Shown: piece by piece, positions 33,913 through 48,874 of the stretch
Position numbering within the stretch: the stretch's first letter is position 1
Layout: each line of letters starts with the position of its first letter
NCBI GenBank assembly: GCA_017643645.1
Contig: JAEPNB010000001.1
Span: forward strand, 450,049-514,048
Length of the DNA stretch: 64,000 bases
From: Balneola sp.
GTDB taxonomy: Bacteria; Bacteroidota; Rhodothermia; Balneolales; Balneolaceae
Reading direction: 5' to 3'
Notes under the pieces: generated by a model
Seen by the model: the letters and a program-made list of their open reading frames with translations, nothing else
Told to the model about the DNA's origin: nothing
The model's database searches: none
Translations under genes and position numbers: made by a program

Positions 33913-33961
33913 TTTAATGAATTAAGAATGAAAAATTTAAAATTAAGAATTCTTCTTTTTT

Positions 33962-34046
33962 GTCATATCGAGCAAAGCGAGATATCTAAAGATAGCTTTT
34001 AAGTAACTCTTTAGATTTCTCAGTCGACAAGCTCTTTCGAAATGAC
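33962..34046. repeat. Nested palindromic element, copy E10
   Basis: GTCATATCGAGCAAAGCGAGATATCTAAAG ... CTTTAGATTTCTCAGTCGACAAGCTCTTTCGAAATGAC. By my alignment, 80 of 85 nt are identical to the reverse complement of E11. Confidence 0.85.
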
Positions 34047-34084
34047 AAATCATTCTTAATTTTTCATTTTGAATTTTGAATTTC

Positions 34085-35592: not shown

Positions 35593-36537
35593 ATGGAAAC
35601 ACAACAGCAATTAGACGACTTTCAAGCCCGAATTGACGCCGGCGAAAAGATAGAACCCAAAGACTGGATGCCTGAGCGCTATCGGGAACAGATCATTCGC
35701 ATGGGTAGCCAGCACGCACATTCTGAGATCGTAGGTATGCTTCCTGAAGGAAATTGGATCTCCAGAGCTCCATCACTTAAAAGAAAATTAGTACTTCTTG
35801 CTAAAGTTCAGGATGAAGCCGGACACGGATTATATTTATACAGCGCTATTGAAACTCTTGGAGTGAGACGCAGTGAACTTATCGATCAATATCTGTACGG
35901 GAACGCTAAATATTCCAGTATTTTCAATTATCCGACCTTAAGCTATGCGGATGTTTGCGTGATCGGTTGGCTGGTTGATGGTGCGGCTATTGTAAACCAA
36001 ACTAAGTTAGCGCATTCCAGTTATGGACCATACGCAAGAGCGAACCTTAGAATTTGTAAAGAAGAAAGTTTCCACAAAAAGCAGGGTTACGAAATGGTAG
36101 CCAAGCTTGCTGAAGGAACTCCGGCTCAACGCAAAATGGTGCAAAGTGCTGTTGATCGTTTTTGGTGGCCAACTTTGATGATGTTTGGACCAAATGATTC
36201 TAACTCTCCAAACAGTGCTGAATTACTGAAATGGCAAGTTAAACTTAATACCAACGACGAGCTTCGTCAACATTTCGTAGACAGAGTGGTTATGGAAGCT
36301 GAAGCAGTTGGGTTAACGCTTCCTGATCCGGATCTGAAATTTAATGAAGAAACCGGTCACTGGGAATTTGGTGAAATTCCGTGGGATGAATTTTGGGACG
36401 TAGTAAAAGGAAATGGCGTTATGAACCGCGAGAGAATTAAATCACGAAGAAAAGCACATGAAGATGGAGCTTGGGTTCGTGAAGCTGCACAAGCGTACGC
36501 CAGAAAGAAAAATTTAAGCCGCGAAAAGGCTTCTTAA
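35593..36537 (+). CDS. paaA: 1,2-phenylacetyl-CoA epoxidase, catalytic subunit A
   Basis: 314 aa. Di-iron ferritin-like motifs are present ([29 protein letters not shown]). It is followed by paaB, paaC and paaD. Confidence 0.9.
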
Positions 36538-36556
36538 GATAATTAAACAAAGAATT

Positions 36557-36641
36557 GTCATTTCGAAGGAGCTTGTCGACAGAGAAATCTAAAGAGCTAT
36601 TTAAAAGCAATCTTTAGATATCTCGCTTTGCTCGATATGAC
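36557..36641. repeat. Nested palindromic element, copy E11 (inverted relative to E10)
   Basis: GTCATTTCGAAGGAGCTTGTCGACAGAGAAATCTAAAG ... CTTTAGATATCTCGCTTTGCTCGATATGAC in the paaA-paaB spacer. Confidence 0.85.
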
Positions 36642-36654
36642 AAAATCCAAATTA

Positions 36655-36954
36655 ATGAGCGAAAACAACGAAAAAGATTGGCCTCTGTGGGAGGTTTTTT
36701 ATCAACCTAAAAATGGCAAGCCTTATGAGCATGCCGGAAGCTTACACGCTTCTGATGCAGAAAATGCACTACAAAATGCCCGAGATGTGTATGCGCGAAG
36801 AAATGAAGGAATCGGAATCTGGGTAGTTCCGTCTGATCAGATCACTGCTTCCACGCCGGAAGATATGGGATCATTTTTTGATCCGGCATCTGATAAGCCG
36901 TACAGACATCCACAATTTTATAGTGTACCAAGAGCCGTAAAGAAAAGAAGCTAA
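36655..36954 (+). CDS. paaB: 1,2-phenylacetyl-CoA epoxidase subunit B
   Basis: MSENNEKDWPLWEVFYQPKNGKPYEHAGSLHA.DAE.AL.NARDVY.RR. The ~99-aa size fits PaaB. The track start at 36628 reads into repeat E11. Confidence 0.88.
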   Translation: MSENNEKDWPLWEVFYQPKNGKPYEHAGSLHASDAENALQNARDVYARRNEGIGIWVVPSDQITASTPEDMGSFFDPASDKPYRHPQFYSVPRAVKKRS

Positions 36955-36964
36955 TTCGTTAATT

Positions 36965-37001
36965 GTTATTAGTGTATTTGTGAAACCAAATAACTAATAA
37001 C
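36965..37001. repeat. Empty word-hairpin, class 1 (GTTATTAGT.TATTTG / CAAATAACTAATAAC), paaB|paaC spacer
   Basis: 15-bp stem with one bulged G and a 6-nt loop TGAAAC. The upstream extension GTTAATTGTTATT (36958-36970) is identical to the first 13 nt of the reverse complement of the right arm at 44109-44127. Confidence 0.75.
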
Positions 37002-37014
37002 CAATAACTATCAA

Positions 37015-37797
37015 ATGAATACAACGAAAGAATTATCAGTTAAAGAATCTAAAATAGCTTACCTGCTCAGGTTGGCCGATGATAGATTAATACTAGGACA
37101 GCGAATGTCAGAGTGGTGCGGTCATGGTCCGGTTTTGGAAGAAGATCTTGCTTTAGCGAACATGGCTCTCGATCTGATCGGACACGCTTCTTCACTATAC
37201 GCATACGCTGCAGAAGTTGAAGATGAAGGACGTGATGAAGATCACTTTGCCTATTTCAGAGATGACTACGAATTTACAAATCTCCAGCTGTATGAACTCC
37301 CGAAAGGGGATTTCGCTTTTACCATTGCCCGACAATTTTTGTTCAGTTCTTTCAGCTATTTTCAATATCAGCAACTTAAAGAAGCTAAAGACGAACAGTT
37401 TGCCGGAATGATCGACAAGCATTTTAAAGAGATCAAATATCATTTGAGACACTCCAGAGACTGGGTACTCAAGCTTGGAGATGGAACAGAAGAAAGCAAA
37501 AAAAGAATGCAAGAAGCTTTCGATGAACTTTGGATGTATACTGGAGAATTATTTTACATAGACGCCGTTGATGAAATGATGTTGGCTGAAGGAAATGGAG
37601 CTGATCTGTTATCATTCAAAGATGAGTGGAAGAAATTAGTGGAAGATACTTTAACTGAAGCCACATTAAGCGTTCCGGATTGGGATCAGTTTATGATGAG
37701 AGGAAGTCGAACGGGAATGCATACGGAGCATTTAGGTCATATGCTTGCTCAGATGCAGTTTTTAAGACGCTCGCATCCTGATGCTGATTGGAAGTAG
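37015..37797 (+). CDS. paaC: 1,2-phenylacetyl-CoA epoxidase subunit C
   Basis: 260 aa. LRLADDRLILGQRMSEWCGHGP.LEEDLALAN.ALDLIG is typical of PaaC. Gene order supports the call. Confidence 0.88.
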   Translation: MNTTKELSVKESKIAYLLRLADDRLILGQRMSEWCGHGPVLEEDLALANMALDLIGHASSLYAYAAEVEDEGRDEDHFAYFRDDYEFTNLQLYELPKGDFAFTIARQFLFSSFSYFQYQQLKEAKDEQFAGMIDKHFKEIKYHLRHSRDWVLKLGDGTEESKKRMQEAFDELWMYTGELFYIDAVDEMMLAEGNGADLLSFKDEWKKLVEDTLTEATLSVPDWDQFMMRGSRTGMHTEHLGHMLAQMQFLRRSHPDADWK

Positions 37798-37801
37798 GAA
37801 C

Positions 37802-37863
37802 AGTACTTAGTATTGAGATGTTAGATTTTAGCGTCGCTTAAATTAAGCTCAATACTAAGTACT
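37802..37863. repeat. Empty word-hairpin, class 2 (AGTACTTAGTATTGAG / CTCAATACTAAGTACT), paaC|paaD spacer
   Basis: 16-nt perfect inverted repeat, 37802-37817 with 37848-37863. The loop contains GTTAGATTTTAG. An extra CTCAATACTA copy lies at 37869-37878. Confidence 0.8.
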
Positions 37864-37882
37864 AATATCTCAATACTAAAAA

Positions 37883-38392
37883 ATGTCAACTCAAACCCTA
37901 CATACCGAAGAGCAAATTTGGGATTATATCCGCGAGGTAACAGATCCGGAGATTCCTGTTCTCAATATTATCGAAATGGGTATCGCGCGTAGTGTTGATA
38001 TAGATCGTTCAGGAAAAGTGACCGTAAAAATCACTCCGACTTATTCCGGTTGTCCGGCTATGAATGCCATCGAAAAAATGGTGAAAGAAAAACTGGAAGA
38101 AAAAGACATCGAAGATTTTGAAGTAAAACTGGATTTTTCTGAAGCCTGGACTACTGACTGGATGACGGATGAAGCCAAAGTTAAGCTTAAAGACTATGGT
38201 ATTGCTCCTCCTGAAAAATCTGTGACCGATGATGACTTTTTAAAGAGCTTGTCAGGAACTAAGATTGTCCCCTGCCCTTTTTGCGATTCTTTTGAGACTG
38301 AACTTCAAAGTCAGTTTGGTTCCACGGCTTGTAAATCACAATATTTTTGTAATTCTTGTCATCAACCCTTTGAACATTTTAAATGCATATGA
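37883..38392 (+). CDS. paaD: Phenylacetate-CoA oxygenase subunit PaaD (DUF59/SUF-like plus C-terminal Cys-rich ribbon)
   Basis: 169 aa. DPEIPVLNIIEMGI, TPTYSGCPAM, and the C-terminal CPFC...CNSC motif. Confidence 0.85.
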   Translation: MSTQTLHTEEQIWDYIREVTDPEIPVLNIIEMGIARSVDIDRSGKVTVKITPTYSGCPAMNAIEKMVKEKLEEKDIEDFEVKLDFSEAWTTDWMTDEAKVKLKDYGIAPPEKSVTDDDFLKSLSGTKIVPCPFCDSFETELQSQFGSTACKSQYFCNSCHQPFEHFKCI

Positions 38393-38745
38393 AACGTAAA
38401 TTTTTCATCCTGACTTTATTTCTTTGTTTAATATCTCTTTCAGCAACTGCTCAGGTTCTTGAAAAAGAGAATAATCATACTGAAGATGCAACGATCTCAT
38501 TTAATTTTATTCCTGACTATAATCATCAGTTTCAGCAGATAAAGCCTCTTCAAGTTAAATCGAATAAACTTTTAATTGGAACCGGCTTTTTACTTCAAGG
38601 ATTAAAATTCAGCTCACCTATCGATCAGTTTAACGCCGTTGTTCCATTCGATTTCAGAGCTTATGAGCCGCTGAATTTCAGTTCTTTTTCAAAGACTATT
38701 CAAACAAATTATCTACTTCAAAATTCTATACAGCCTATAAAATGA
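38383..38745 (+). CDS. Hypothetical small secreted protein inside the paa cluster
   Basis: 120 aa with the signal peptide MKRKFFILTLFLCLISLSATAQ. It overlaps the paaD end by 10 nt and the paaG start by 4 nt. Confidence 0.5.
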   Translation: MHMKRKFFILTLFLCLISLSATAQVLEKENNHTEDATISFNFIPDYNHQFQQIKPLQVKSNKLLIGTGFLLQGLKFSSPIDQFNAVVPFDFRAYEPLNFSSFSKTIQTNYLLQNSIQPIK

Positions 38746-39533
38746 GTCTACAGTTTATTGAAACCAATTTAGAAGAAGGCGTTTTAACCATAACATTAAA
38801 TCGCCCTGATGTATTAAACAGTTTCAACTACGGAATGGCTGAAGAAGTACAGGATGCTTTTAAGGAAGCGGAATCAAATGACGCAATCCGTTGTGTTTTA
38901 CTCACTGCAAACGGCAAAGGATTTTGCGCTGGTCAGGATCTGAAAGAAGTAACCGAAATTGCTAAAGATCCGGATCGCGAGCTTGGTGAAGTTGTTCATC
39001 ATACTTATAACCCGATCATCAGAGCCATTCGGAATTTAGAAAAACCTGTTATTTGTGCCGTTAACGGGACTGCTGCCGGAGCGGGAGCTAATATTGCAAT
39101 AGCTTGTGATATGGTTTTTGCTGCTGAAGAAGCCAAGTTTATTCAATCATTTTCAAATATTGGATTAATTCCTGATAGTGGTGGAACGTACATTCTTCCC
39201 AGACTAATTGGACTTGCCAGAGCGACTGAACTCACTTTTACCGGTCGACCTGTTAAAGCACCTGAAGCGGTTGAAATGGGAATGATCTACAAGTCAGTTC
39301 CTGCCGATGAATTACTGAATGAAGCGATGGGTCTATGCAAGAAATTCGCAAAAATGCCTACTCGTGGCTACGGACTTACCAAAAAAGGATTTAATGAAGG
39401 GTTTAATAATGACCTGGAAACCCAGTTGAAACTGGAAGCTGACCTGCAAGCGGAAGCAGGCAGCACGGAAGATTATCATGAAGGAGTTGCTGCTTTTCTT
39501 GAGAAGAGAAAACCTGAGTTTAAGGGGAAGTGA
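38742..39533 (+). CDS. paaG: 1,2-epoxyphenylacetyl-CoA isomerase (crotonase family)
   Basis: 263 aa, colinear with E. coli PaaG as I recall it. Shared stretches are GVLTITLNRPDVLNSFN, IRCVLLT..GKGFCAGQDL, KPVICAVNG.AAGAGA and the C-terminus DY.EGVAAFLEKRKPEFKGK. Confidence 0.85.
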   Translation: MSLQFIETNLEEGVLTITLNRPDVLNSFNYGMAEEVQDAFKEAESNDAIRCVLLTANGKGFCAGQDLKEVTEIAKDPDRELGEVVHHTYNPIIRAIRNLEKPVICAVNGTAAGAGANIAIACDMVFAAEEAKFIQSFSNIGLIPDSGGTYILPRLIGLARATELTFTGRPVKAPEAVEMGMIYKSVPADELLNEAMGLCKKFAKMPTRGYGLTKKGFNEGFNNDLETQLKLEADLQAEAGSTEDYHEGVAAFLEKRKPEFKGK

Positions 39534-39552
39534 ATTTCAAATCCTACAACTT

Positions 39553-39972
39553 TTATAACTCATTTATTGATGTAACAAACTCTTTATAAGCTGTCTTTTT
39601 TATTCCATTAGACATTCGAATATCAGCTGTAAATAAATTTCCTTCATAATTGACAGCTACTGCAAGATAACAAGCATCATATAAAGTAATTGAGAACCGA
39701 GTAGATATAAAAAATGCTTCCGTCTTAATTTCGTCGAATGCTACTGTAACAAAATTCATACTCTCCAGAATTTGAATAATACTCTCAGCCTCTTTTATAG
39801 AAAGTTCTCTCTTCCTTACTTTTTTTGAGATAATGTTACTCGTTTCTATCCAAAAAAGATCCGGTACTACAAAATGATTTTTTTCAGATAAAAAGCTTCT
39901 GGCAATTTCACTGTATTCTTCAGGAAAGAACCACTTTAAAGCAACTGAAACATCAATAACCGGGACTTTCAT
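39553..39972 (-). CDS. vapC: PIN-domain ribonuclease toxin (VapC-like)
   Basis: 139 aa. Conserved acidic positions fit PIN (VIDVSV.., IETSN, LYDACY, TADIR). There is a 4-nt overlap with the upstream antitoxin gene. Confidence 0.8.
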   Translation of the reverse strand: MKVPVIDVSVALKWFFPEEYSEIARSFLSEKNHFVVPDLFWIETSNIISKKVRKRELSIKEAESIIQILESMNFVTVAFDEIKTEAFFISTRFSITLYDACYLAVAVNYEGNLFTADIRMSNGIKKTAYKEFVTSINEL

Positions 39973-40205
39973 CGATCCCTATCTTCACGAATATCTTTTA
40001 CGCTATCTGAAAATACCCGACCCTCAGCTTTGAATTTCTCATATATTTCCCGAACCATATCCTTAGCTTCATCCATATTCATAGATGCTTCATTTTCAAG
40101 CAATATTTTTAGCTCTGCTTGTAGGGAGCGATTATTCTTTTCTGCTCTTTTTTTGAGCTTATTCAGTGTTTTCTCATCGATATTTCTGATTAGTACATCA
40201 GGCAT
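39969..40205 (-). CDS. vapB: Ribbon-helix-helix antitoxin (VapB/FitA-like)
   Basis: 78 aa. The N-terminal RHH pattern is MPDVLIRNIDEKTLNKLKKRAEKNNRSLQAELKILLE. It is coupled to the PIN gene. Confidence 0.78.
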   Translation of the reverse strand: MPDVLIRNIDEKTLNKLKKRAEKNNRSLQAELKILLENEASMNMDEAKDMVREIYEKFKAEGRVFSDSVKDIREDRDR

Positions 40206-40222
40206 AACAACTGTGTTTGTTA

Positions 40223-40234
40223 TATGATATCATA
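40223..40234. promoter_or_regulatory. Candidate VapB operator: perfect 12-nt palindrome TATGATATCATA
   Basis: Read directly, 18 nt upstream of the vapB start codon in the vapB/paaH divergent spacer. Confidence 0.4.
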
Positions 40235-40333
40235 ATGATAGCAAATTGTAGTGATGTTTACAATGCTATACTCAAATTCCCCTTAAGATTTGTTATCTTG
40301 AATTCGACTTTAATGTAAAAGAACTTATTGGGA

Positions 40334-41494
40334 ATGATAAATACAGATTCTGTAGTAGGAATTATTGGCGCAGGAACTATGGGCGCCGGAATCGCACAAA
40401 TAGCATCCACAAATGGTCATGAAGTTTATCTGTACGATGCTTACGCCGAACAGCTTCCAAAAGCTAAATCAGGCTTAGAAAAGATCCTGAACCGTCAGGT
40501 TGAAAAAGGGAGAATGTCACAAGATAAAGTAGATGGCATTCTTTCCCGAATTCATTTTGTAGAAGACATTACAGAATTTGGCAAGTGTGGTTTTGTGATT
40601 GAAGCTATCGTCGAAAATATTGATATCAAAAAAGATGCTTTTCAAAGATTGGAAGGAATTGTTTCTAAAGATTGTATTCTTGCTTCCAATACCTCTTCCC
40701 TTTCCATTGCTTCGATCTCTTCGGCATTAAAAAAACCTGAACGGTTCTTGGGAGTTCATTTTTTCAATCCTGCACCGCTGATGAAGTTGGTGGAGATCAT
40801 CCCAAGTGTAGCCACTGATTCTGATCTGGCACAATCAACCAAAGAGTTTATTTCCGGCTGGGGAAAGATCACTGTACTGGCAAAAGATACTCCCGGATTT
40901 ATCGTGAATCGTGTGGCTCGACCTTTTTATTCTGAAGCACTAAGGATTTTAGAAGAAGGCGTCGCTGATGTTCCAACCATTGATTGGGCAATGAAAGAGA
41001 TCGGTGGATTCAGAATGGGGCCTTTTGAGCTAATGGATCTTATCGGTCATGATGTGAATTATGAAGTGACATCAAGCGTATTCAAAGAGTTTTACTACGA
41101 CCCAAGATTCAAACCTTCATTCACTCAAAAACGATTGGTAGAAGCGGGATGGTTAGGCAGAAAATCGGGTAAAGGATTTTATAATTACGGAGAGGATGCT
41201 AAAAATCCTGATCCAAATACTGACAAAGAATTAGGCGAAGAAATCCTACACAGAATACTCGTAATGCTGATCAACGAAGCTTTCGATGCCGTATTTATGA
41301 ATATCGGTTCAGCGGAGGATGTTGACCTTGCAATGCAAAATGGAGTGAATTATCCGAAAGGATTACTTGCATGGGCGGAAGAAATAGGATTAGAAAAAGT
41401 CTTAGGCCGAATGAACGCGCTTTATGAGGAATATCAGGAAGATCGATATCGACCAAATCCGCTTTTGAAAAGAACGGTAAGGGGGAAGAAGTAG
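40334..41494 (+). CDS. paaH: 3-hydroxyacyl-CoA (3-hydroxyadipyl-CoA) dehydrogenase
   Basis: Rossmann motif VGIIGAGTMGAGIAQ plus NTSSLSI and HFFNPAP motifs. I prefer the ATG at 40334 to the TTG at 40328. Confidence 0.85.
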   Translation: MINTDSVVGIIGAGTMGAGIAQIASTNGHEVYLYDAYAEQLPKAKSGLEKILNRQVEKGRMSQDKVDGILSRIHFVEDITEFGKCGFVIEAIVENIDIKKDAFQRLEGIVSKDCILASNTSSLSIASISSALKKPERFLGVHFFNPAPLMKLVEIIPSVATDSDLAQSTKEFISGWGKITVLAKDTPGFIVNRVARPFYSEALRILEEGVADVPTIDWAMKEIGGFRMGPFELMDLIGHDVNYEVTSSVFKEFYYDPRFKPSFTQKRLVEAGWLGRKSGKGFYNYGEDAKNPDPNTDKELGEEILHRILVMLINEAFDAVFMNIGSAEDVDLAMQNGVNYPKGLLAWAEEIGLEKVLGRMNALYEEYQEDRYRPNPLLKRTVRGKK

Positions 41495-41495
41495 A

Positions 41496-41571
41496 CAGTA
41501 ATCAGAATTCAGGAGTTCAGGAGTTCAGAATATGAGTAGAACTCTGCTGAATTCTGAACTCCTGATTACTG
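41496..41571. repeat. Empty word-hairpin, class 3 (CAGTAATCAG..GAGTTCAGAAT / ATTCTGAACTCCTGATTACTG), paaH|paaI spacer
   Basis: 41496-41505 pairs with 41562-41571, and 41521-41531 pairs with 41551-41561. The left arm carries an extra tandem GGAGTTCA word as a bulge. Confidence 0.7.
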
Positions 41572-41587
41572 ACAACTAAATTGAGAC

Positions 41588-41995
41588 ATGAGCAAAGACT
41601 ATAAAAACATAATTCAATCCATGATGGAAAAAGATGCCTTTTCCAAGTGGATGGGAATTGAGATATTGGAATCAGAACCGGGATATGTGAAATTATCCAT
41701 GAAAGTCCGCCAAGAAATGTGCAATGGGTTTGGGATTTGTCATGGCGGAATTACGTTCTCTTTAGCTGACAGTGCTTTAGCTTTTGCATCAAACTCCAGA
41801 GGATCTGTATCTGTCGCTCTGGAAAATAATATCAACTACACTAAAAAGGTAGAAGTAGGTGATACACTAATTGCCGAAACAGAAGAAATTCAAAACGGAA
41901 GAACCATCGGTGTGTATAAGATCAGGGTTTTGAATCAGAATGATGATCTAGTGGCCGATTTTAGGGGAACGGTTTATAGAACTGGGAAGCATTAG
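41588..41995 (+). CDS. paaI: Hydroxyphenylacetyl-CoA thioesterase (hotdog fold)
   Basis: 135 aa. FSKWMGIEILE...G, N..G.CHGG..FSLADSA. Context supports the call. Confidence 0.85.
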   Translation: MSKDYKNIIQSMMEKDAFSKWMGIEILESEPGYVKLSMKVRQEMCNGFGICHGGITFSLADSALAFASNSRGSVSVALENNINYTKKVEVGDTLIAETEEIQNGRTIGVYKIRVLNQNDDLVADFRGTVYRTGKH

Positions 41996-41999
41996 ATTT

Positions 42000-42431
42000 T
42001 AGTATTGAGTAGTTAGATTTTTAGTATCGATAGTAGGAGTATTTTTATGCATCAATTTAAAGAATTAAAGGTTTGGCAGAAATCTGTAGAATTAGCTACT
42101 GAAGTTTATAATTCTACCAAAAATTTTCCATCTGAAGAAAAGTTTGGGATAACTTCTCAAATTAGAAGAAGCGTTGTTTCTATAGGCTCAAATATTGCTG
42201 AAGGTGCTGGAAGAAAATCAAAAAAAGAGTTCAAACTGTTTCTCAATTATGCATATGGATCATGTTCTGAACTCGAAACTCAACTTATTATCTCAAAAAA
42301 TTTAGGATTTGTAAATCCAGACTCATTGCCTGTTTTATCTGAATCAATTAATGAAATTCAAAAAATGATCTACTCTCTGTCTAACAGTTTGAACTAGGTG
42401 ATGAAAACTAATTTCTAAATACTCAATACTA
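42000..42431 (+). other. Inverted-repeat-bounded cassette, class 2 arms, carrying a four-helix-bundle gene
   Basis: TAGTATTGAGTA (42000-42011) and TACTCAATACTA (42420-42431) form a perfect 12-nt inverted repeat. The left flank TTTAGTATTGAGTAGTTAGATTTTTAG matches the empty hairpin left arm at 37807-37832 in ~23 of 26 nt. Confidence 0.65.
42047..42397 (+). CDS. Four-helix-bundle protein (23S rRNA intervening-sequence protein / Avd-like family)
   Basis: 116 aa. FKELKVWQKS.EL..EVY..T..FP.EEKFGITSQIRRS.VSIGSNIAEG.GR.S.KEF..FL..A.GS..ELETQL is the family signature as I know it (PF05635/TIGR02436). AGGAG lies 9 nt upstream. Confidence 0.85.
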   Translation: MHQFKELKVWQKSVELATEVYNSTKNFPSEEKFGITSQIRRSVVSIGSNIAEGAGRKSKKEFKLFLNYAYGSCSELETQLIISKNLGFVNPDSLPVLSESINEIQKMIYSLSNSLN

Positions 42432-42438
42432 CCATCTC

Positions 42439-43656
42439 ATGTCTAAAAGCGAAGCGTACATAATCGACGGAATCAGAACTCCAATTGGAAAATTGAAAGG
42501 ATCTCTTTCTTCTATCAGGGCGGATGATCTTGCAGCAATCCCTATTAAAGAACTTTTGAAAAGAAATCCGGAATTAGATCCTGCTTCAGTCGAAGATGTG
42601 ATCTTGGGTTGTGCGAATCAGGCCGGGGAAGATAACAGAAATGTTGCTCGGATGGCTGCTTTACTTGCAGGACTTCCGGTATCAGTTCCAGGCGAAACCG
42701 TGAATCGTTTATGCGCATCAGGAATGAGTGCCACAATTCGTGCTTTTCATGCAATAAAAGCCGGTGAAGGCGATGTCTTTATCACCGGAGGTGTAGAACA
42801 TATGACTCGTGGTCCTATTGTCCTCGGAAAAGGAAGTTCTCCATATTCAGGAACTACTGAAATGCATGATTCAACTTTCGGATGGAGATTTGTAAATCCA
42901 AAAATGCATGAGATGCATGGAACAGACGGCATGGGAATGACTGCTGAAAATGTAGTTGAAATTCATAAGATATCTCGGGAAGATCAGGACAAATTTGCGG
43001 CATGGAGTCAACAAAAAGCCGGTGCAGCAAGAGATTCAGAACGATTGGCCAAGGAAATTGTGAAAGTCGAAATCCCGCAAAGAAAAGGCGATCCAATCGT
43101 TTTTGAACATGATGAATTTATGCGTCCGGACTCAACTGCTGAAATTCTTGGAAAACTCAGACCTGCTTTCAGAAAAGATGGTTCAGTAACTGCCGGTAAT
43201 GCATCGGGCTTGAATGACGGAGCCGGAGCTTTATTGATAGCTTCTTCTGATGCTGTTGAGAAATACGGTTTTAAACCGAAAGCCAGAATTGTTGCTTCAG
43301 CAGTTTCCGGAATAGAGCCTAGAATTATGGGACTTGGCCCTGTGGAAGCAACTCAGAAAGCTTTGAAACGCGCCGGGCTTTCTTTAGACGATATGGACAT
43401 CATTGAGCTGAATGAAGCTTTCGCCGGACAATCTCTTGGAGTTACCAGAAAGCTGGGGCTAAAAGACAATGATTCGAGACTAAATCCGAATGGTGGTGCA
43501 ATTGCAATCGGACATCCATTAGGAATGACCGGACAAAGATTACTTCAAACTGCTACCATCGAACTACATGAAAACTCAGATAGAAAATACGCACTTTGTA
43601 CTTTATGTGTAGGAGTCGGGCAGGGATTTGCTGTTGTTTTGGAGAAGGTAAGTTAA
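42439..43656 (+). CDS. paaJ: 3-oxoadipyl-CoA/acetyl-CoA C-acyltransferase (thiolase)
   Basis: 405 aa. Active-site regions are NRLCASGM, NEAFA, NPNGGAIAIGHPLG and CVGVGQG. Confidence 0.9.
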   Translation: MSKSEAYIIDGIRTPIGKLKGSLSSIRADDLAAIPIKELLKRNPELDPASVEDVILGCANQAGEDNRNVARMAALLAGLPVSVPGETVNRLCASGMSATIRAFHAIKAGEGDVFITGGVEHMTRGPIVLGKGSSPYSGTTEMHDSTFGWRFVNPKMHEMHGTDGMGMTAENVVEIHKISREDQDKFAAWSQQKAGAARDSERLAKEIVKVEIPQRKGDPIVFEHDEFMRPDSTAEILGKLRPAFRKDGSVTAGNASGLNDGAGALLIASSDAVEKYGFKPKARIVASAVSGIEPRIMGLGPVEATQKALKRAGLSLDDMDIIELNEAFAGQSLGVTRKLGLKDNDSRLNPNGGAIAIGHPLGMTGQRLLQTATIELHENSDRKYALCTLCVGVGQGFAVVLEKVS

Positions 43657-44127
43657 TAGTTATTGGTTATGAGTGATAAGAAAGAAATAGTAAGAACTTT
43701 TGAAGACTTAAAAGTTTGGCAGATTGCTCATAAAATTAGTATTGACATCTTTGAACTAACAAATAGATTTCCTCCTGATGAAAAGTACCTCTTGAAAGAT
43801 CAAATGATCAGATCTTCTAGATCTATTTCAGATAATATAGCAGAAGGATATGGTCGTTTCCACTATCAGGAAAATACTCAATACTGTAGACAAAGCAGAG
43901 GTTCAGCCTACGAGTTAATCAATCAGCTTATCACTGCGTTCGATTGTAAATACATTAACGAAGAAGAATTGAGTAACAAAAAGTTATTGGTTTCTGAATG
44001 TGTTAAACTTTTAAATGGATACATTAGATATCTTCAAAAAGCCAAAAATGATAATACTATCAGAGAAGATGAAATATTCTACAATCCGAAAGTTGATAAA
44101 GAAACCGAATAACCAATAACAATTAAC
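43652..44127 (+). other. Inverted-repeat-bounded cassette, class 1 arms, carrying a four-helix-bundle gene
   Basis: GTTAATAGTTATTGGTTAT (43652-43670) against ATAACCAATAACAATTAAC (44109-44127) gives 18 of 19 complementary. The left arm contains the paaJ stop (43654-43656) and the first 2 nt of the cassette ATG (43669-43671). The right arm contains the cassette stop (44110-44112). Confidence 0.75.
43669..44112 (+). CDS. Four-helix-bundle protein (23S rRNA IVS protein / Avd-like family), long form
   Basis: FEDLKVWQIAHK....IF.LT..FP.DEKY.L.DQM.RSSRSISDNIAEGYGR....E...Y...S.GS..EL. I prefer the ATG at 43669 to the TTG at 43663. Confidence 0.85.
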   Translation: MSDKKEIVRTFEDLKVWQIAHKISIDIFELTNRFPPDEKYLLKDQMIRSSRSISDNIAEGYGRFHYQENTQYCRQSRGSAYELINQLITAFDCKYINEEELSNKKLLVSECVKLLNGYIRYLQKAKNDNTIREDEIFYNPKVDKETE

Positions 44128-44143
44128 CACCAATCTGAGCCAA

Positions 44144-44743
44144 ATGGCGATCTACTCATACAAAGGATATAAACCTGTAATTCACGAAAGTGCCTACATC
44201 CATCCGCTTGCGGCTGTGACCGGAAATGTAATTATTGGCAAAGACGTGTATATCGGACCGGGAGCTGCTATTCGGGGTGATTGGGGAAAGATCGTAATTA
44301 AGGATGGCTGTAATGTTCAAGAAAACTGTACCATTCATATGTTTCCGGGAGTTACGGTTACTCTGGAAGAAGGAGCACATGTTGGACATGGAGCTATTAT
44401 TCACGGTTCGCATCTTGGTAAGAACTGTTTGATCGGAATGAATGCTGTAATCATGGATAATGTGAAAATTGGTTCCGGCTGTATTATAGGTGCTTTAACA
44501 TTTATCAAAGAAGGAATGGAAATTCCGGATCGTAAAGTGGTAGTTGGGAATCCTGCTAAAATCGTAAAAGATGTTTCGGATGAAATGCTGAACTGGAAAA
44601 CAGAAGGCACCGGTTGGTATCAAAGACTGCCTAATGAACTTCATGAAACTTTGAAAGAGTGTGAACCGTTGAGAGAAACACCTGAAGATAGAAAAGATCA
44701 GTACTCTGACTATGAGACTTGGGGCAAATCGAAGGATAGTTAA
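44144..44743 (+). CDS. paaY: PaaY-like hexapeptide-repeat protein (gamma-carbonic-anhydrase-like thioesterase/acyltransferase)
   Basis: 199 aa. The left-handed beta-helix repeats begin IYSYKGYKPVIHESAYIHPLAAVTGNVIIGKDVYIGPGAAIRGD. Context supports the call. Confidence 0.82.
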   Translation: MAIYSYKGYKPVIHESAYIHPLAAVTGNVIIGKDVYIGPGAAIRGDWGKIVIKDGCNVQENCTIHMFPGVTVTLEEGAHVGHGAIIHGSHLGKNCLIGMNAVIMDNVKIGSGCIIGALTFIKEGMEIPDRKVVVGNPAKIVKDVSDEMLNWKTEGTGWYQRLPNELHETLKECEPLRETPEDRKDQYSDYETWGKSKDS

Positions 44744-44827
44744 TAGTGATTAGTTATTTGGAGAGTCTTTGCTTTACGTTATTTTCTACTCTGCCCATAA
44801 AACCATCTATAACTAATCATTATTAAC
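44739..44827. repeat. Class 1 word-hairpin with 51-nt loop, after paaY
   Basis: GTTAATAGTGATTAGTTAT (44739-44757) against ATAACTAATCATTATTAAC (44809-44827) gives 18 of 19 complementary. The left arm contains the paaY stop TAA (44741-44743). Confidence 0.75.
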
Positions 44828-44834
44828 CAATTAC

Positions 44835-45278
44835 ATGGGATTTTTTAAGAACGATAAAAAAGGAAAGCCACCTCATACTTGGTATCCGGAAATATTACAC
44901 TGGCGAGAAGGTGATAAGATCTTTTGCTGGAATATTGCAAAAGCATTGGGTTATTTGAATGCTAAATCCAAGGATTTGTACAAGTATATGTCTGCTACTG
45001 AACAAATGAGTGGTGGTTTTGGCAAAGCTAATTTTTTCTATAAATCAGTTGATGAAACCGGCAATATCTATCTGGAATATGAAGGTGAAACAGTACAATT
45101 TGAGTTTTGGAGATTTATTAAATCGTCTGAAAATGAAAGCTTAAAGTCTCGAAATTTGCAAGACGATTTAAAAAACTCTAAGAAATACATGGAATTGATG
45201 TCTACCTTTCAGCATGCATTTGATGAATTACAGGAAGCGGATGATCACCCAAAAAGACTCGGCCAAAAAAACTCATAA
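44835..45278 (+). CDS. Hypothetical protein (orphan inside the paa cluster)
   Basis: 147-aa ORF with no recognised motifs. It starts 8 nt after the class 1 hairpin. Confidence 0.5.
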   Translation: MGFFKNDKKGKPPHTWYPEILHWREGDKIFCWNIAKALGYLNAKSKDLYKYMSATEQMSGGFGKANFFYKSVDETGNIYLEYEGETVQFEFWRFIKSSENESLKSRNLQDDLKNSKKYMELMSTFQHAFDELQEADDHPKRLGQKNS

Positions 45279-45314
45279 CTGGTTACTCGTTTCTTTTAAC
45301 TTAGAAATATAATC

Positions 45315-45521
45315 ATGAGCTACCGTAATTCAGAGATCTGGCAACTTGCAAAGGAGCAATCAAATAAAATTCATTTTATGAGTTTAAAACTTCCAAAATT
45401 TGAGCTATATGAAACTCAATCATTAAAGAGCAAAGAACTTTATCTTGAACTGATAGAATTAAATGATAAACTTGGGAAAAAATTGAACCTCTTCATCCAA
45501 TCGGTAGAAAGAACACAATAA
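45315..45521 (+). pseudogene. Internally deleted four-helix-bundle gene remnant
   Basis: The 68-aa ORF keeps helix 1 (YRNSEIWQLAKEQSNKIHFMSLKLPKFELYE) and a C-terminal helix (KELYLELIELNDKLGKKLNLFIQSVE). It lacks the central ...Q.RR...SI..NIAEG... core found in the three intact copies. Confidence 0.5.
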
Positions 45522-45526
45522 TAATT

Positions 45527-47602
45527 ATGGAAACTGATAACCAGAATCGAGAAACGAGTAGCGAGCTAAAAGTACAAAGCTATATACAGGGCAAATGGTT
45601 AACAGAAGGATCTGAGACCGATCTTATTAGTGCTATTAACGAAAAACCAGTTGCTCAATTAGTCGAAGCTGATATCGATTATCAATCTGCACTGGAATAC
45701 GGACGAACTGTCGGCGGACCTGCTCTTCGAAAACTCACTATCCACGAGCGTGCATTCAAAATTAAGTTTTTGGCTGCTTATTTGATGGAAAGAAAGGAAA
45801 ACCATTACAAACTTTCTTCTCATACCGGCGCCACCCGTAAAGATTCATGGATAGATATTGAAGGTGGATATGGATCTATGTTCGTTCTTTCAAGCAAAGC
45901 CCGTCGTGAACTGTCCGATCTTCCCTTTCATGTTGAAGGTGGAACTGAACGACTTTCCAGAGGAGGAACGTTTGTAGGCCAACATATTTGCGTTCCAAAG
46001 CATGGAATCGCCGTTCATATCAATGCATTCAATTTCCCGGTTTGGGGAATGGTTGAAAAATTAGCACCGGCAATTATGGCGGGACAGCCATGTATCATCA
46101 AGCCTTCACCGGTTGGATCATACTTGGCTTACGAAGTCTTTAAAGATATTATTGAATCTGAAATTCTTCCTGAAGGTAGTGTACAGTTTATTGCCGCTGA
46201 TAAACCAGGCGATCTTCTGGATCGCCTGAACAGTCAGGATTCTGTTTCTTTTACAGGTTCGGCTACCACGGGTAAGAAATTGAAATCTCATCCCAATATT
46301 GTAGCGAATTCCATTCAATTTAATATGGAAGCCGATTCATTGAACGCTTCTATTCTTGGTCCGGATGTAACTCCTGATATGGAAGAATTCAATCTTTTTA
46401 TTAAGGAAGTCGGCATGGAAATGACTGTGAAAACAGGTCAAAAATGTACCGCCATTCGTCGAACCATCGTTCCAAGAGAAAGACTTGAAGATGTATCCGA
46501 AGCACTAAAGAATTTTCTTTCGAAAACGACCATCGGCGATCCGACTGATAAAAATACAAGAATGGGCCCCTTAGCATCCAGCCTTCAATCTCAAAGATTT
46601 GATGAACAACTTGCAGTGCTTGAGGATGTGACAGATTCAATTTTTTCTAACGGAACTCATGAAGGAGCTTTCACTAGCCCGAAAGTTTTGGTTTGTCATC
46701 AACCGATGAAAGTTGATAAAGTACATGAAATAGAAGCTTTCGGACCAATGACTACAATTATGCCTTATGATTCTACCGAAGAAGCTATTCAATTAGCTAA
46801 TAAATCTGATGGCTCTTTAGTCGCATCTCTTTTTACTGCAGATGATGATATTGCTGCTGAAATAACTTTAGGATGTGCGCCTTATCACGGACGTTTTATG
46901 GTGATCAATAAACACTCTGCCGGTGAGTCAACAGGACATGGATCTCCGATGCCGCATATGGTACATGGTGGTCCGGGAAGAGCCGGAGGCGGAGAAGAAC
47001 TTGGTGGAGCCAGAGCTGTGCTTCATAACATGCAGCGAATAGCTCTACAAGGTTCACCTACAACATTAATGAACATCGTTAAACAACATATCAAAGGAGC
47101 AGAAACGAAAGAAGCGCCGAAGCATCCATTCCAAATGTATTTTGAGGAATTGGAAGTTGGACAATCGCTACTTTCTGATGTTCGAAAAGTTAAAGATCAG
47201 GATGTGGAAGATTTTGCGAATCTTTCCGGTGATCACTTCTATGCACATACAGATCCAGATGCAGCTTCAAGATCTCTATTTGGTAAAATTGTAGCTCATG
47301 GATATTTCGTACTTTCCGCAGCTGCCGGACAGTTTGTTCATCCGGATGAAGGGCCTGTACTACTTAATTATGGATTAGAAAATCTGGCTTTTCTAGCTCC
47401 TGTTGCACCCGGTGATTCCATCCAAACCAAACTCATTGTAAAACGGAAAACAGTTCGTCAGCAACGGGAAATGGACCTATTCCCCTTTGGAGTAGTCTTT
47501 TGGGATGTAGAAGTAAAAAATCAGGAAGACGTTTTGGTGGCGGAGTATACCATACTAACTTTAGTGAAAAGAAAGAATAAATTAGATATTGATCTGGTTT
47601 AG
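45527..47602 (+). CDS. paaZ: Bifunctional oxepin-CoA hydrolase / 3-oxo-5,6-dehydrosuberyl-CoA semialdehyde dehydrogenase
   Basis: 691 aa with an N-terminal aldehyde dehydrogenase domain (FTGS..TG, ...GQKCTAIRR) and a C-terminal MaoC-type hydratase (FA.LSGD.FYAHTDP). Size and layout match PaaZ. Confidence 0.88.
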   Translation: METDNQNRETSSELKVQSYIQGKWLTEGSETDLISAINEKPVAQLVEADIDYQSALEYGRTVGGPALRKLTIHERAFKIKFLAAYLMERKENHYKLSSHTGATRKDSWIDIEGGYGSMFVLSSKARRELSDLPFHVEGGTERLSRGGTFVGQHICVPKHGIAVHINAFNFPVWGMVEKLAPAIMAGQPCIIKPSPVGSYLAYEVFKDIIESEILPEGSVQFIAADKPGDLLDRLNSQDSVSFTGSATTGKKLKSHPNIVANSIQFNMEADSLNASILGPDVTPDMEEFNLFIKEVGMEMTVKTGQKCTAIRRTIVPRERLEDVSEALKNFLSKTTIGDPTDKNTRMGPLASSLQSQRFDEQLAVLEDVTDSIFSNGTHEGAFTSPKVLVCHQPMKVDKVHEIEAFGPMTTIMPYDSTEEAIQLANKSDGSLVASLFTADDDIAAEITLGCAPYHGRFMVINKHSAGESTGHGSPMPHMVHGGPGRAGGGEELGGARAVLHNMQRIALQGSPTTLMNIVKQHIKGAETKEAPKHPFQMYFEELEVGQSLLSDVRKVKDQDVEDFANLSGDHFYAHTDPDAASRSLFGKIVAHGYFVLSAAAGQFVHPDEGPVLLNYGLENLAFLAPVAPGDSIQTKLIVKRKTVRQQREMDLFPFGVVFWDVEVKNQEDVLVAEYTILTLVKRKNKLDIDLV

Positions 47603-47619
47603 TCAGTGGTCAGAACTCA

Positions 47620-48069
47620 GAATTTCAGGAGTTCAGAATTGATCTTTTTTTGTAAGGAATTGCTTTGAATTGGTCTTACTAGATAACATTTGAAATAATT
47701 TTTATCTATGAAACCAGCACGAACATTTAAAGACCTTTTAGTTTGGCAGAAAGCGCACAAATTTGTTCTTGAAAGCTATGCTTATTCAAAAGGTTTCCCC
47801 AAAGAAGAAATTTATGGTCTTACTTCGCAGTATAGAAGAGCCTCTGTATCAATAGCCGCAAATATCGCTGAAGGATTCAAGAAAAGAGGCCAAAAAGATA
47901 AAGCAAGATTCATGAATATCGCACAAGGATCATTGGAAGAATGTAGATATTACCTTATACTCGCACAAGATTTAGGATATGGATCATCTCAAAACTTGAA
48001 CAATCTCCTTGAAGAAGTAAGTAAAATGCTTTCAAGTTATGGAAGATCAATTCTGAACTCCTGAAATTC
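47620..48069 (+). other. Inverted-repeat-bounded cassette, class 3 arms, carrying a four-helix-bundle gene
   Basis: GAATTTCAGGAGTTCAGAATTG (47620-47641) is the exact reverse complement of CAATTCTGAACTCCTGAAATTC (48048-48069), a perfect 22-nt inverted repeat. The gene's stop codon (48062-48064) lies inside the right arm. Confidence 0.85.
47708..48064 (+). CDS. Four-helix-bundle protein (23S rRNA IVS protein / Avd-like family)
   Basis: 118 aa. FKDLLVWQKAHKFVLESY.....FPKEEIYGLTSQYRRASVSIAANIAEGF.KR...DKARF.NIAQGSLEE. Confidence 0.88.
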   Translation: MKPARTFKDLLVWQKAHKFVLESYAYSKGFPKEEIYGLTSQYRRASVSIAANIAEGFKKRGQKDKARFMNIAQGSLEECRYYLILAQDLGYGSSQNLNNLLEEVSKMLSSYGRSILNS

Positions 48070-48096
48070 TGAACTCCTGAAATTCTGAACTCCTGA
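48049..48096 (+). repeat. Perfect 3x tandem repeat of the 16-mer AATTCTGAACTCCTGA
   Basis: The units at 48049-48064, 48065-48080 and 48081-48096 are identical. The first unit forms the right arm of the class 3 cassette and contains the stop codon. Confidence 0.95.
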
Positions 48097-48109
48097 AGAA
48101 CTAATAAAT

Positions 48110-48874
48110 ATGTCTAAAGACGGAAACGTAGAACTAACGATCTCAAACAATATCGGAACCATCGAGTTTTCTCATCCAAAGGGGAATTCATTACCGGGAG
48201 CTATACTCAGAAAACTGGCTTCAACAATTGATGAAGCAGGAAAAGATAACGACATAAAAGTGATCGTAATTAAAAGTTCAGGAGAAGGAGCATTTTGCGC
48301 CGGAGCTTCTTTTGATGAATTAATTGCCATTGAAGACTTCGAAGCAGGTAAACAATTTTTTATGGGATTTGCATTGGTCTTAAACGCCATGCGACAATCA
48401 CCTAAACTGATCATCGTCCGAGTTCACGGAAAAACAGTAGGTGGTGGAGTTGGAATCGCATCGGCAGGAGACTATACTTTTGCCAAAAAAGGCGCTTCTG
48501 TAAAACTAAGTGAGCTGGCTTTAGGAATTGGTCCATTTGTAGTAGGACCGGCTGTTGAAAGAGCTGTTGGCACTTCTGCTTTTTCAACAATGGCTGTTGA
48601 TGCCACTACTTGGTATGACTCAACTTGGGCAACCCAAAAGGGATTATTCAATAAGGAATTTGATACCACACAAGAACTTGACGAAGCTGTATCAAATTTA
48701 GCTGAACAACTCTCCAAGAGCAGCCCCAAAGCGATGCAGGAATTAAAGCAGGTACTTTGGAAGGGCACTGAGAAGTGGGAAGACCTTTTAGACCAAAGAG
48801 CGGAAGTGAGCGGACGATTAGTTTTATCGGATTACACAAAAAACTTTATCAAGAAATTTAAGTCGAAAAGCTAG
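48110..48874 (+). CDS. Enoyl-CoA hydratase/isomerase-family protein
   Basis: 254 aa with the crotonase fold (GAFCAGASFDE, VHGKTVGGGVGIASAGD). It could act as the PaaF step, but it is not close enough to assign. Confidence 0.75.
   Translation: MSKDGNVELTISNNIGTIEFSHPKGNSLPGAILRKLASTIDEAGKDNDIKVIVIKSSGEGAFCAGASFDELIAIEDFEAGKQFFMGFALVLNAMRQSPKLIIVRVHGKTVGGGVGIASAGDYTFAKKGASVKLSELALGIGPFVVGPAVERAVGTSAFSTMAVDATTWYDSTWATQKGLFNKEFDTTQELDEAVSNLAEQLSKSSPKAMQELKQVLWKGTEKWEDLLDQRAEVSGRLVLSDYTKNFIKKFKSKS

Follow-up and report, generated by a model that had tools for sequence, protein, structure and literature searches.

A plus-strand phenylacetate (paa) operon occupies positions 35593-48874 of a 64,000-nt stretch of DNA from the marine bacterium Balneola sp. 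(Balneolaceae), hereafter the window, and three of its gene junctions hold a small gene for a four-helix-bundle (4HB) protein enclosed by inverted repeats. We refer to these genes as h1, h2 and h3, and to each gene together with its repeat arms as a cassette. Further junctions of the same operon carry gene-less hairpins composed of the same classes of short words as the arms. Altogether, a hairpin or cassette was found at 9/9 non-overlapping co-directional paa junctions, versus 2/10 elsewhere in the window (Fisher p = 7e-4). An inverted-repeat search placed the arms around all three genes, as had been read from the letters in a first-pass annotation of this DNA. The components of the three cassettes are listed below.

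41990-42017, plus strand: 5' arm of h1 (class 2), holding the paaI stop codon TAG at 41993-41995
42047-42397, plus strand: h1, gene for a 116-aa 4HB protein (PF05635/TIGR02436)
42414-42441, plus strand: 3' arm of h1, ending on the thiolase start codon ATG at 42439-42441
43652-43670, plus strand: 5' arm of h2 (class 1), holding the thiolase stop codon TAA at 43654-43656 and overlapping the h2 start
43669-44112, plus strand: h2, gene for a 147-aa 4HB protein, with ATG at 43669 and an alternative TTG at 43663
44109-44127, plus strand: 3' arm of h2, holding the h2 stop codon
47617-47646, plus strand: 5' arm of h3 (class 3), pairing with 48043-48072
47708-48064, plus strand: h3, gene for a 118-aa 4HB protein whose last 7 codons and stop are encoded by the 3' arm
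48043-48097, plus strand: 3' arm and array of h3, AAGATC and then (AATTCTGAACTCCTGA) x 3, stopping 12 nt before the enoyl-CoA hydratase start

The three open reading frames (ORFs) matched PF05635 with E-values of 3e-41, 4e-33 and 9e-38 for h1, h2 and h3 (140, 114 and 129 bits; cut-off 33.8), and scored 132, 103 and 122 bits on TIGR02436 (cut-off 24). They are the sole intact 4HB genes in the window, and their pairwise identity of 36-42% agrees with the initial view of three mutually distant members of this family. Proteins of PF05635 are annotated as "four helix bundle protein" or "S23 ribosomal protein", without a function. The family is large, as a search with h3 recovered 20,161 clusters (50% identity) at E ≤ 1e-3. 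Residues Q38, R41, N49, E52 and E75 are invariant. The closest solved relative of h3 is 2gsc (E = 4e-17); 2gsc and 2rld each have five chains per entry, and the S23p structure of X. campestris is a homopentamer (PMC4990558). By their similarity to 2gsc and 2rld, the window proteins may likewise assemble into pentameric rings. A phage origin was considered and rejected, since only one (h1) and two (h2) weak relatives were present among 2.9 million viral contigs, and the PADLOC models of anti-phage defence gave no match.

The arms of h1 are 28 nt long and 86% complementary, those of h2 19 nt and 95%, and those of h3 30 nt and 100%. The h3 arms had initially been taken as perfect repeats of 22 nt (47620-47641 with 48048-48069); the perfect pairing held, but the length was an underestimate. 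In minimum-free-energy folds of all three whole-cassette RNAs, the arms paired with one another and closed a domain of ~400 nt. On its 3' side, h3 carries a tandem of 3 x 16 nt (48049-48097), and a conserved spacer of 60 nt lies between its 5' arm and its ATG. Inspection of this spacer by eye for a Bacteroidetes-type promoter (TTTG ... TAnnTTTG) yielded imperfect matches only. Separately, three short-read assemblies of the same organism (L002, L003 and L005) stop exactly within the 3' word array of h3, which points to further copies of the array in the genome or to a sequence that assembles poorly.

The window also contains a fourth, decayed cassette at the junction in front of paaZ (x/paaZ), which went unnoticed in the first-pass annotation. 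It was recognized by comparison with six orthologous paa operons of related Balneolaceae (L089-L094; L090 is strain CP051255 and L094 is Gracilimonas), the thiolases of which are 97, 97, 94, 91, 89 and 87% identical to that of the window. A thiolase identical to the window copy is encoded on contig JAEPOI010000001.1 of GCA_017643005.1, and the nearest homologues (96-98% identity) carry the label Balneola sp.

45271-45294, plus strand: 5' arm remnant of 24 nt (79% with 45550-45573), with a flank also found in L089 and L090
45315-45521, plus strand: decayed 4HB gene, a 68-aa ORF with an in-frame internal deletion of 52 codons
45550-45573, plus strand: 3' arm remnant, now within the annotated 5' end of paaZ

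The deletion in 45315-45521 falls between two LYET repeats and removes the family core SQ.RR..NIAEG, and no Pfam match is left for the product. Its flanks and its N- and C-termini are shared with intact 120-aa genes in L089 (13231-13593) and L090 (14069-14431), and the intact L089 orthologue scored 89.8 bits on TIGR02436. At the position that matches the 3' arm remnant, L091 carries (ACGAGAA) x 8. The paaZ gene itself is called at 691 aa in the window (45527-45573 region) versus 679-682 aa in L091-L094; the additional codons at the N-terminus run into the former 3' arm, and by this comparison the true start may lie further downstream.

Four gene-less hairpins are present at other junctions of the operon.

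36958-37008, plus strand: class-1 hairpin at paaB/paaC, words GTTAAT / GTTATT, fold z = -4.9
37800-37886, plus strand: class-2 hairpin at paaC/paaD, words AGTACTT / AGTATTG / AGATGTT, fold z = -6.1
41490-41577, plus strand: class-3 hairpin at paaH/paaI, words TCAGAATT / TCAGGAGT, fold z = -5.9
44739-44827, plus strand: class-1 hairpin after paaY, with 19-nt arms and a 51-nt loop, fold z = -3.8

All four had been proposed at these junctions, and their RNA folds proved significant (z from -3.8 to -6.1), with 0/200 shuffles folding equally well. The proposed division into three word classes was also upheld and does not reduce to AT-rich similarity: each arm consensus was matched 5-8 times in the 64-kb window, where 0.04-1.3 matches were expected, 0/100 shuffles equalled the observed count, and every match with at most two mismatches fell inside the paa operon. 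The loops of the class-3 hairpin are not conserved between genomes, and a mini-ORF remnant within it was therefore rejected. A scan for intrinsic terminators returned 12 sites in the window, compared to 9.8 ± 2.7 in shuffles, none of which coincided with a junction hairpin; a sigma-70 promoter scan likewise remained at shuffle level, with no site at a hairpin, and Rfam identified no rRNA or other RNA family in the window or in 11 related loci.

Between Balneola and Gracilimonas, the gene-less hairpins have been retained at matching junctions. The paaB/paaC hairpin is kept in L089-L092, with an overlapping ATGA junction instead in L093 and L094, and the paaH/paaI hairpin occupies the same junction in L090-L094, while its 3' half is lost in L089. 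The hairpin after paaY, whose 5' arm provides the paaY stop codon, is kept in L089, L090 and L093 and missing in L091 and L092. Covariation was clearest at paaC/paaD, where 7 of the 21 consensus pairs show compensatory double changes (5 Balneolaceae) while the sequence drifts. Since these hairpins are conserved across genera with compensatory changes, they are maintained rather than decaying scars. Unmaintained decay has a different look, as in the remnant at paaZ/enoyl-CoA hydratase of L093 and the half-hairpin at paaH/paaI of L089. The idea that hairpins are solo scars of lost cassettes was thus correct in part. Deletion decay does occur (window 45315-45521, L093 paaZ/enoyl-CoA hydratase, L089 paaH/paaI), and the paaJ/paaY junction has a gene-less class-1-like hairpin in Gracilimonas L094 where Balneola has a full cassette, but conservation with compensatory changes does not fit mere scars. 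We infer that the gene-less hairpins are ORF-less derivatives of cassettes that are themselves maintained.

Alignment of the seven orthologous operons revealed presence/absence polymorphism of cassettes at identical junctions. Occupancy is given below in the order paaI/paaJ, paaJ/paaY, x/paaZ, paaZ/enoyl-CoA hydratase.

Window: +, +, decayed, +
L089: +, +, +, -
L090: +, +, +, -
L091: +, +, +, +
L092: +, +, -, +
L093: +, -, -, -
L094 (Gracilimonas): -, -, -, +

Every cassette junction carries its own protein lineage in this comparison. Orthologues of h1 lie at the same junction in L090, L092 and L093 (88-98% amino acid identity), with a 59%-identical allele in L089 and L091; h2 has an 88% orthologue in L092 and a 122-aa allele of 52-55% identity in L089-L091; and h3 has orthologues of 96-65% identity in L091, L092, L094 and L014. 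Two junctions therefore hold deeply divergent alleles (59% and 52-55% identity; 147 versus 122 aa in the latter) despite flanking genes that are 97% identical. Between the window and L089, nucleotide identity drops from ≥0.9 to 0.2-0.65 exactly over the cassette and its arms and then recovers. The arms differ from allele to allele, yet are complementary within each allele, and array copy number varies between strains, for example (TCAGGAG) x 5, (ACTACTGA) x 4 and (ACGAGAA) x 8.

Orthologous cassettes have a synonymous divergence (dS) comparable to that of the thiolase next to them. The ratio of nonsynonymous to synonymous divergence (dN/dS) is 0.03-0.06 for h1 and 0.02-0.12 over the cassette proteins, compared to 0.04-0.05 for the thiolase, and the 4HB proteins are thus under strong purifying selection, on par with the neighboring enzyme. 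Because the lineages are junction-specific, with thiolase-like dS and low dN/dS, the cassettes are old vertical residents with selected proteins, consistent with the early argument from protein divergence that one cassette had not recently been copied three times. Their history is one of long vertical inheritance with the operon, interrupted by occasional precise replacement, loss or deletion decay.

Cassettes of this type are not confined to the Balneolaceae. A control set of at least 80 independent paa loci from other taxa, found through a thiolase search (nearest relative at most 70% among the matches listed), contained ten further 4HB genes, all co-oriented with the operon and most with flanking inverted repeats. 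A metagenome scan, which used the h3 lineage only and thereby makes the large census one of a single 4HB clade, returned 80 loci with proteins 59-96% identical and a locus GC of 0.32-0.62. We scored flanking inverted repeats (score ≥12) against size-matched control genes, called with a simple longest-ORF caller, and 4HB genes were bracketed far beyond controls in all three data sets: 16/19 versus 3/72 in Balneolaceae (Fisher p = 3e-12), 7/10 versus 18/417 in the other paa loci (p = 1e-7), and 50/68 testable genes versus 5/102 in the metagenome loci (p = 6e-22).

The metagenomic arms have a period of 7, with the 5' words CAGGAGT, CAGAAGT and CAGAATT and their complements on the 3' side. Lag-7 autocorrelation was 0.39 in arms versus 0.28 in controls, CAGGAG occurred in 34/74 5' flanks versus 18/309 controls, and arms reached 132 nt (L105). 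Proteins ~70% identical to h3 are encoded on Nostoc punctiforme pNPUN02 and Trichormus variabilis plasmid C and in Nostoc sp. C052; the cyanobacterial plasmid cassettes lie between co-directional genes, carry h3-type arrays and are flush with the host stop and start. The same cassette type, protein and words together, is thus present in distant phyla. More remote relatives have words of their own. A Picosynechococcus relative (63% identity; PCC 7003, L180 1495-1851) has GGAGATA words and lies between cas10 and cmr3, and an Anabaena sp. 90 relative (45%; L183 1489-1857) has ~45 GGTGACA/GGGAACA heptamers upstream and lies between cas6 and cas4, both in cas operons on cyanobacterial plasmids. Passive insertions of this sort may account for a published statistical link between the "23S rRNA IVP" and CRISPR loci. 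The words of the h2 clade, GTTATTG/AGTTATT, recur in a Saprospiraceae locus, and an Aquimarina/Flavobacteriaceae clade has TTTGAGG words; for class-1 and class-2 words outside the Balneolaceae, the evidence comes from a few loci (L024, L025 and L017).

Placement within host operons is strict. The upstream neighbor is on the same strand in 52/57 cassettes (p = 1e-4, expectation 0.7) and the downstream neighbor in 34/47; the gaps between stem and host genes have medians of 1.5 nt behind the host stop and 9 nt ahead of the next host start. In 32/74 cassettes, the 3' array includes the 4HB stop codon, so that protein tails such as ...AILNS* and ...AILTSDS* are translated words. Arm similarity also tracks protein similarity. 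At least three hexamers were shared between the 5' arms in 94% of cassette pairs at ≥80% protein identity, in 46% at 60-80% (the bin tested, where 0/500 label permutations reached this value), in 13% at 45-60% and in 2% below 45%. The arms are part of the cassette and diverge along with the protein it encodes. The suggestion that the gene inserts into the loops of existing hairpins was accordingly not borne out: h3-like proteins of unrelated metagenomes and of Nostoc come with the same arm words, arm similarity follows protein identity, and the 3' array encodes the last codons and stop of the ORF.

Cassettes accompanied by gene-less arrays of their own words recur in Chryseobacterium L009, where AATTTGAAAAT words are found at five junctions as well as in the 4HB arms, in the Firmicute-like contig L128, and beside other metagenomic cassettes. 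Extra solo arrays lie near the cassettes of L122, L125, L128, L137 and L167, versus 1 in ~1.5 Mb of unrelated paa loci. In L128 (260-710, 1100-1200 and 3979-4310), the h3-like gene is inserted between an extracytoplasmic function (ECF) sigma factor gene and the anti-sigma gene, and the framing heptamer array is also found on a repeated non-coding element of ~430 nt. One copy of this element holds a TwoAYGGAY RNA (RF01731, 50.8 bits), the sole Rfam match.

Several other elements occupy paa operons. In the window, a PIN toxin gene (139 aa, PF01850) and a FitA-like antitoxin gene (78 aa) lie mid-operon at 39553-40205 on the minus strand, antisense, between an enoyl-CoA hydratase gene and paaH; L089, L090, L091 and L094 have this pair too, whereas L092 and L093 do not, and it represents a further polymorphic small insert of the operon. 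Positions 44835-45278 encode a member of a 130-150-aa family (MGFFKNDKKGKPPHTWYPEILHWREGD...) with no Pfam or NCBIfam match. It follows paaY in one copy in the window, two in L089 (12352-13194), four in L090 (12349-14032) and four in L091 (12258-13936), arranged head-to-tail in tandem with overlapping stop/start codons. Outside the three word classes, the paaA/paaB junction holds a different palindrome:

36557-36641, plus strand: 85-nt palindromic element at paaA/paaB, GTCAT...GAGAAATCTAAAG...CTTTAGATATCTC...ATGAC

A second copy, in inverse orientation at 33960-34045 (region 33925-34085), is nested in arms of a fourth word class, TTAAGAAT / TTCAAAAT, which also fills the empty paaZ/enoyl-CoA hydratase junction of L089, L090 and L093. 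The paaA/paaB junction of L090 (3742-3860) has a GC-rich repeat element, CCCCCTTCAAAGGGGGATTT...CCCCTCTTGAGAGGGG, and those of L092 and L093 an element GTCATCCTGAG...CTCAGAATGAC, so that three unrelated palindromes are found at one junction within the genus.

In other Bacteroidota paa operons, small GIY-YIG nuclease genes (94-130 aa, PF01541) are bracketed by GC-rich inverted repeats of up to 57 nt (Hymenobacter L053), which resemble gene-less elements of the repetitive extragenic palindromic (REP) kind at other junctions. They form a second, unrelated gene family with a gene-in-hairpin layout.

L011, 11844-12164: GIY-YIG gene
L015, 13946-14230: GIY-YIG gene
L025, 5124-5516 and 14397-14714: GIY-YIG genes
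L053, 9612-9902: GIY-YIG gene

Finally, at 16021-16774 of L009 (Chryseobacterium pennipullorum), REP-type palindromes ACCGTGTCAAGGTTTTAAACCTTGACACGGT flank a gene of 208 aa that weakly matches IS200-like Y1 transposases. This has the look of a classical RAYT/REP unit, and it gave the flank scan a positive control that had not been planned.

To our knowledge, the 23S rRNA intervening sequence (IVS) is the only described architecture of the PF05635 family outside diversity-generating retroelements (DGRs). In Coxiella, two to three GACAGAT heptamers lie upstream of the S23p ORF of the 23S rRNA IVS, and RNase III excises the IVS at the first of them; the function and origin of the 23S IVS had been unclear for more than 25 years from its discovery to the 2016 Coxiella study (PMC4990558). 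Like the IVS of Coxiella, Leptospira and Xanthomonas, the window cassettes have a PF05635 ORF in a long inverted-repeat stem, oriented with the host transcript. They share with the Coxiella element tandem heptamers beside the ORF with strain-variable copy number (PMC4990558), and with 23S IVS a sporadic distribution that suggests horizontal transfer. The likeness to an IVS in a catabolic mRNA, as first proposed, is therefore substantiated by family, arms and tandem words, with no rRNA detected by Rfam. There are also clear differences. The 23S IVS lies in helix 25 or 45, whereas the window cassettes sit at stop/start junctions of a polycistronic mRNA with paa genes as flanks, and several divergent cassettes occur in one operon together with gene-less partner hairpins. 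The Coxiella IVS protein has been reported as decaying and untranslated (PMC4990558), in contrast to the strongly selected window proteins. RNase III excision has been demonstrated for IVS, and is a prediction for the window cassettes.

The arms also resemble repeats described as gene-less. Geobacter metallireducens has paired tandem octa- and heptanucleotide sites, termed "predicted global regulator binding sites" of classes 1-3 (PMC2700814). As in the window, these are tandem word pairs on opposite strands between operon genes (proB/proA, moaA/mosC and hdrB/hdrA), with several sequence classes per genome, and the class-3 consensus MTYCTGA of that study equals the 3'-arm word of the h3 class. 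The window 3' words ATTCTGA / ACTCCTGA fit this consensus with an 8-nt period, and the metagenome and Nostoc copies with a 7-nt period. For the Geobacter sites, IHF or HU was suggested as the binder, and no link to 4HB genes or IVS was drawn (PMC2700814). Beggiatoaceae, Cyanobacteria and Bacteroidetes also carry arrays of a TAACTGA heptamer, which typically stop a few nucleotides short of a start codon (PMC4679880). Both these arrays and the cassette arms are intergenic tandem heptamers of variable copy number, in the same phyla and with the 3' end near a start codon, and this holds as well for the cyanobacterial STRR heptamers. The latter were reportedly described by Mazel et al. in 1990. Unlike cassettes, TAACTGA and STRR arrays are direct repeats without an inverted partner or an associated gene, and their words differ; by analogy, they may nevertheless be related to the cassettes. 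A search of the open-access literature found no paper that ties these repeats to 4HB genes or IVS, and an earlier description elsewhere is possible. Taken together, the likenesses suggest that the 23S rRNA IVS and several heptamer repeats belong to one element family.

REPIN-RAYT systems (REPtrons) provide a second parallel. There, too, a repeat brackets a gene in inverted copies and turns up without it as hairpins in transcribed intergenic spacers, with vertical inheritance, purifying selection on the gene and class-specific pairing of gene and repeat. RAYT, however, is an HUH/Y1 transposase of known cleavage chemistry, whereas the 4HB protein has no known catalytic activity (only PF05635 and bAvd matches), and REPIN-RAYT uses a single REP palindrome where cassette arms are tandem word arrays. 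The DGR protein Avd has a homologous 4HB fold and family, with weak matches to bAvd (PF22296) and NF033474. An identity as DGR Avd was rejected, as the NF033474 scores were 28.6 and 27.4 bits versus an equivalog cut-off of 80, with no match for h2. A DGR reading also fails on context, since there is no reverse transcriptase and no template/variable repeat pair nearby; the neighbors are paa genes, the PIN/FitA pair and small genes.

On balance, we favor the view that these are IVS-type cassettes in mRNA operons, looped out by their stem and accompanied by gene-less miniature derivatives. The unit consists of a PF05635 4HB gene, presumably promoterless, between two complementary inverted arrays of 7-8-nt words, and would be transcribed through read-through from the host operon. 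Pairing of the arrays in the transcript would form a long stem that loops the insert out and rejoins the host stop and start codons, so that an insertion of 450 nt would have less of a polar effect. Both the consistent sense orientation of the cassettes and their flush fit between host codons suggest transcript-level constraints. RNase III needs about two helical turns, which stems of 28-30 bp would satisfy. By analogy with the 23S rRNA IVS, such stems are likely substrates, and processing of the window stems by RNase III is possible, though we hold it only tentatively.

Several observations weigh against this scenario. Cleavage by RNase III at an mRNA junction is expected to harm the host operon, and purifying selection on a protein without known activity fits a purely selfish model poorly. 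The 60-nt spacer of h3 might hold its own promoter, so that not every cassette need depend on read-through. On the sense strand, G·U and A·C mismatches of the cassette arms were balanced at 73 versus 64 (p = 0.49), and the gene-less hairpins had no G·U excess either (counts of 9/5, 21/31 and 18/15). Because these mismatches are symmetric, pairing could be upheld at the DNA level. The order of word variants is mirrored between the very long arms of L105, which suggests DNA-level templated copying or gene conversion between arms. Lastly, no transposase, integrase or reverse transcriptase was found among the genes neighboring the cassettes, and the allele swaps could be explained by ordinary homologous recombination via flanking genes.

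The DNA-level observations raise the question of whether RNA structure is relevant at all. A foldback-type mobile element, in which the long inverted arrays would act in recognition or as structures for DNA transposition or for recombination through hairpins and the mobility factor would be encoded elsewhere, would account for symmetric mismatches, near-perfect mirrored arrays of up to 132 nt, replaced segments that end at the arms, and strain-variable array copy number, and the occurrence of cassettes of ~70% identity in Balneolota, Cyanobacteria and a Firmicute-like contig implies horizontal spread. We nevertheless find such an element improbable, given that the cassettes, while they have inverted ends as MITEs and insertion sequences do, have no transposase in or beside them, that near-identical copies at different sites are lacking, and that junction-specific lineages within Balneolaceae have a dS like that of flanking genes; strict orientation and flush stop/start fit argue for a transcript-level constraint, and no target-site duplication was noted, though no systematic search for them was made. 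A separate selfish 4HB gene that targets the loops of host REP-like hairpins, which would themselves serve mRNA stability or processing, is just as much of a long shot. Gene-less word hairpins are indeed common at co-directional junctions of many Bacteroidota loci and in Geobacter, the word hairpin of paaJ/paaY encloses a gene in Balneola but none in L094, and GIY-YIG and RAYT-like small genes also lie between inverted repeats in paa operons. Invasion of existing host hairpins is disfavored because arms track the protein, ORF ends are encoded by the array, and swapped alleles bring their own arms; moreover, the h2 start overlaps an arm, and one protein clade keeps the same arms across phyla at locus GC of 0.32-0.62. 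Short words recur easily in AT-rich spacers, but chance similarity or ordinary intrinsic terminators have practically no probability in view of the shuffle counts (0/100), the fold z-scores of -3.8 to -6.1, covariation, and replication in hundreds of kilobases of unrelated loci. No junction hairpin fits a terminator pattern, and terminator counts were at shuffle level.

The main alternative is a cognate protein-site system, although we consider it unlikely. Here each 4HB clade would specifically bind its own word arrays, around its gene and at gene-less sites, either as a post-transcriptional or DNA-level regulator of junctions or as a RAYT-like keeper and spreader of gene-less hairpins. It would account for an operon in which each of three word classes has a 4HB gene of its own, for the recurrence of this arrangement in Chryseobacterium L009 and in L128 (with the array also on a repeated element), and for the extra solo arrays near the five metagenomic cassettes. 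Co-divergence of protein and arms, purifying selection like that on a core enzyme, covarying gene-less hairpins, and the five-chain relatives 2gsc and 2rld together with the homopentameric X. campestris S23p are also consistent with it. Co-divergence follows from shared ancestry alone; the first 3' word codes for the conserved C-terminal ...IL and the 5' array complements it, which conserves words without binding; and class-3 gene-less hairpins persist in L090 and L093, whose operons lack the h3 cassette. The bAvd protein of DGRs binds nucleic acid, reportedly without sequence specificity. The paired heptamer sites of Geobacter, on the other hand, have already been proposed to bind a protein (PMC2700814). 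In an extended form, the gene-less arrays (junction hairpins, Geobacter classes 1-3, TAACTGA and STRR) would be sites that depend on, or descend from, 4HB cassettes as their "master copies", a proposal we regard as doubtful; the joint claim that the 23S rRNA IVS represents a particular insertion site used by this system is, in our estimate, doubtful to a similar degree.

If the window cassettes are IVS-type elements of mRNA operons, as we favor, the rRNA IVS would become a special case of a general hairpin-framed, heptamer-armed element. Orphan word repeats such as the Geobacter pairs, TAACTGA and STRR would gain a candidate partner or origin, and spurious "associations" of the 4HB family with cas operons and other systems would be explained. 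Should the stem restore the proximity of stop and start codons, it would be a novel means by which an inserted gene conceals itself within an operon. Were the arrays instead the cognate sites of the 4HB proteins, repeats known since 1990 would acquire a protein partner, and the family would comprise a REPIN/RAYT-like or junction-regulatory system based on a non-enzymatic ring protein.

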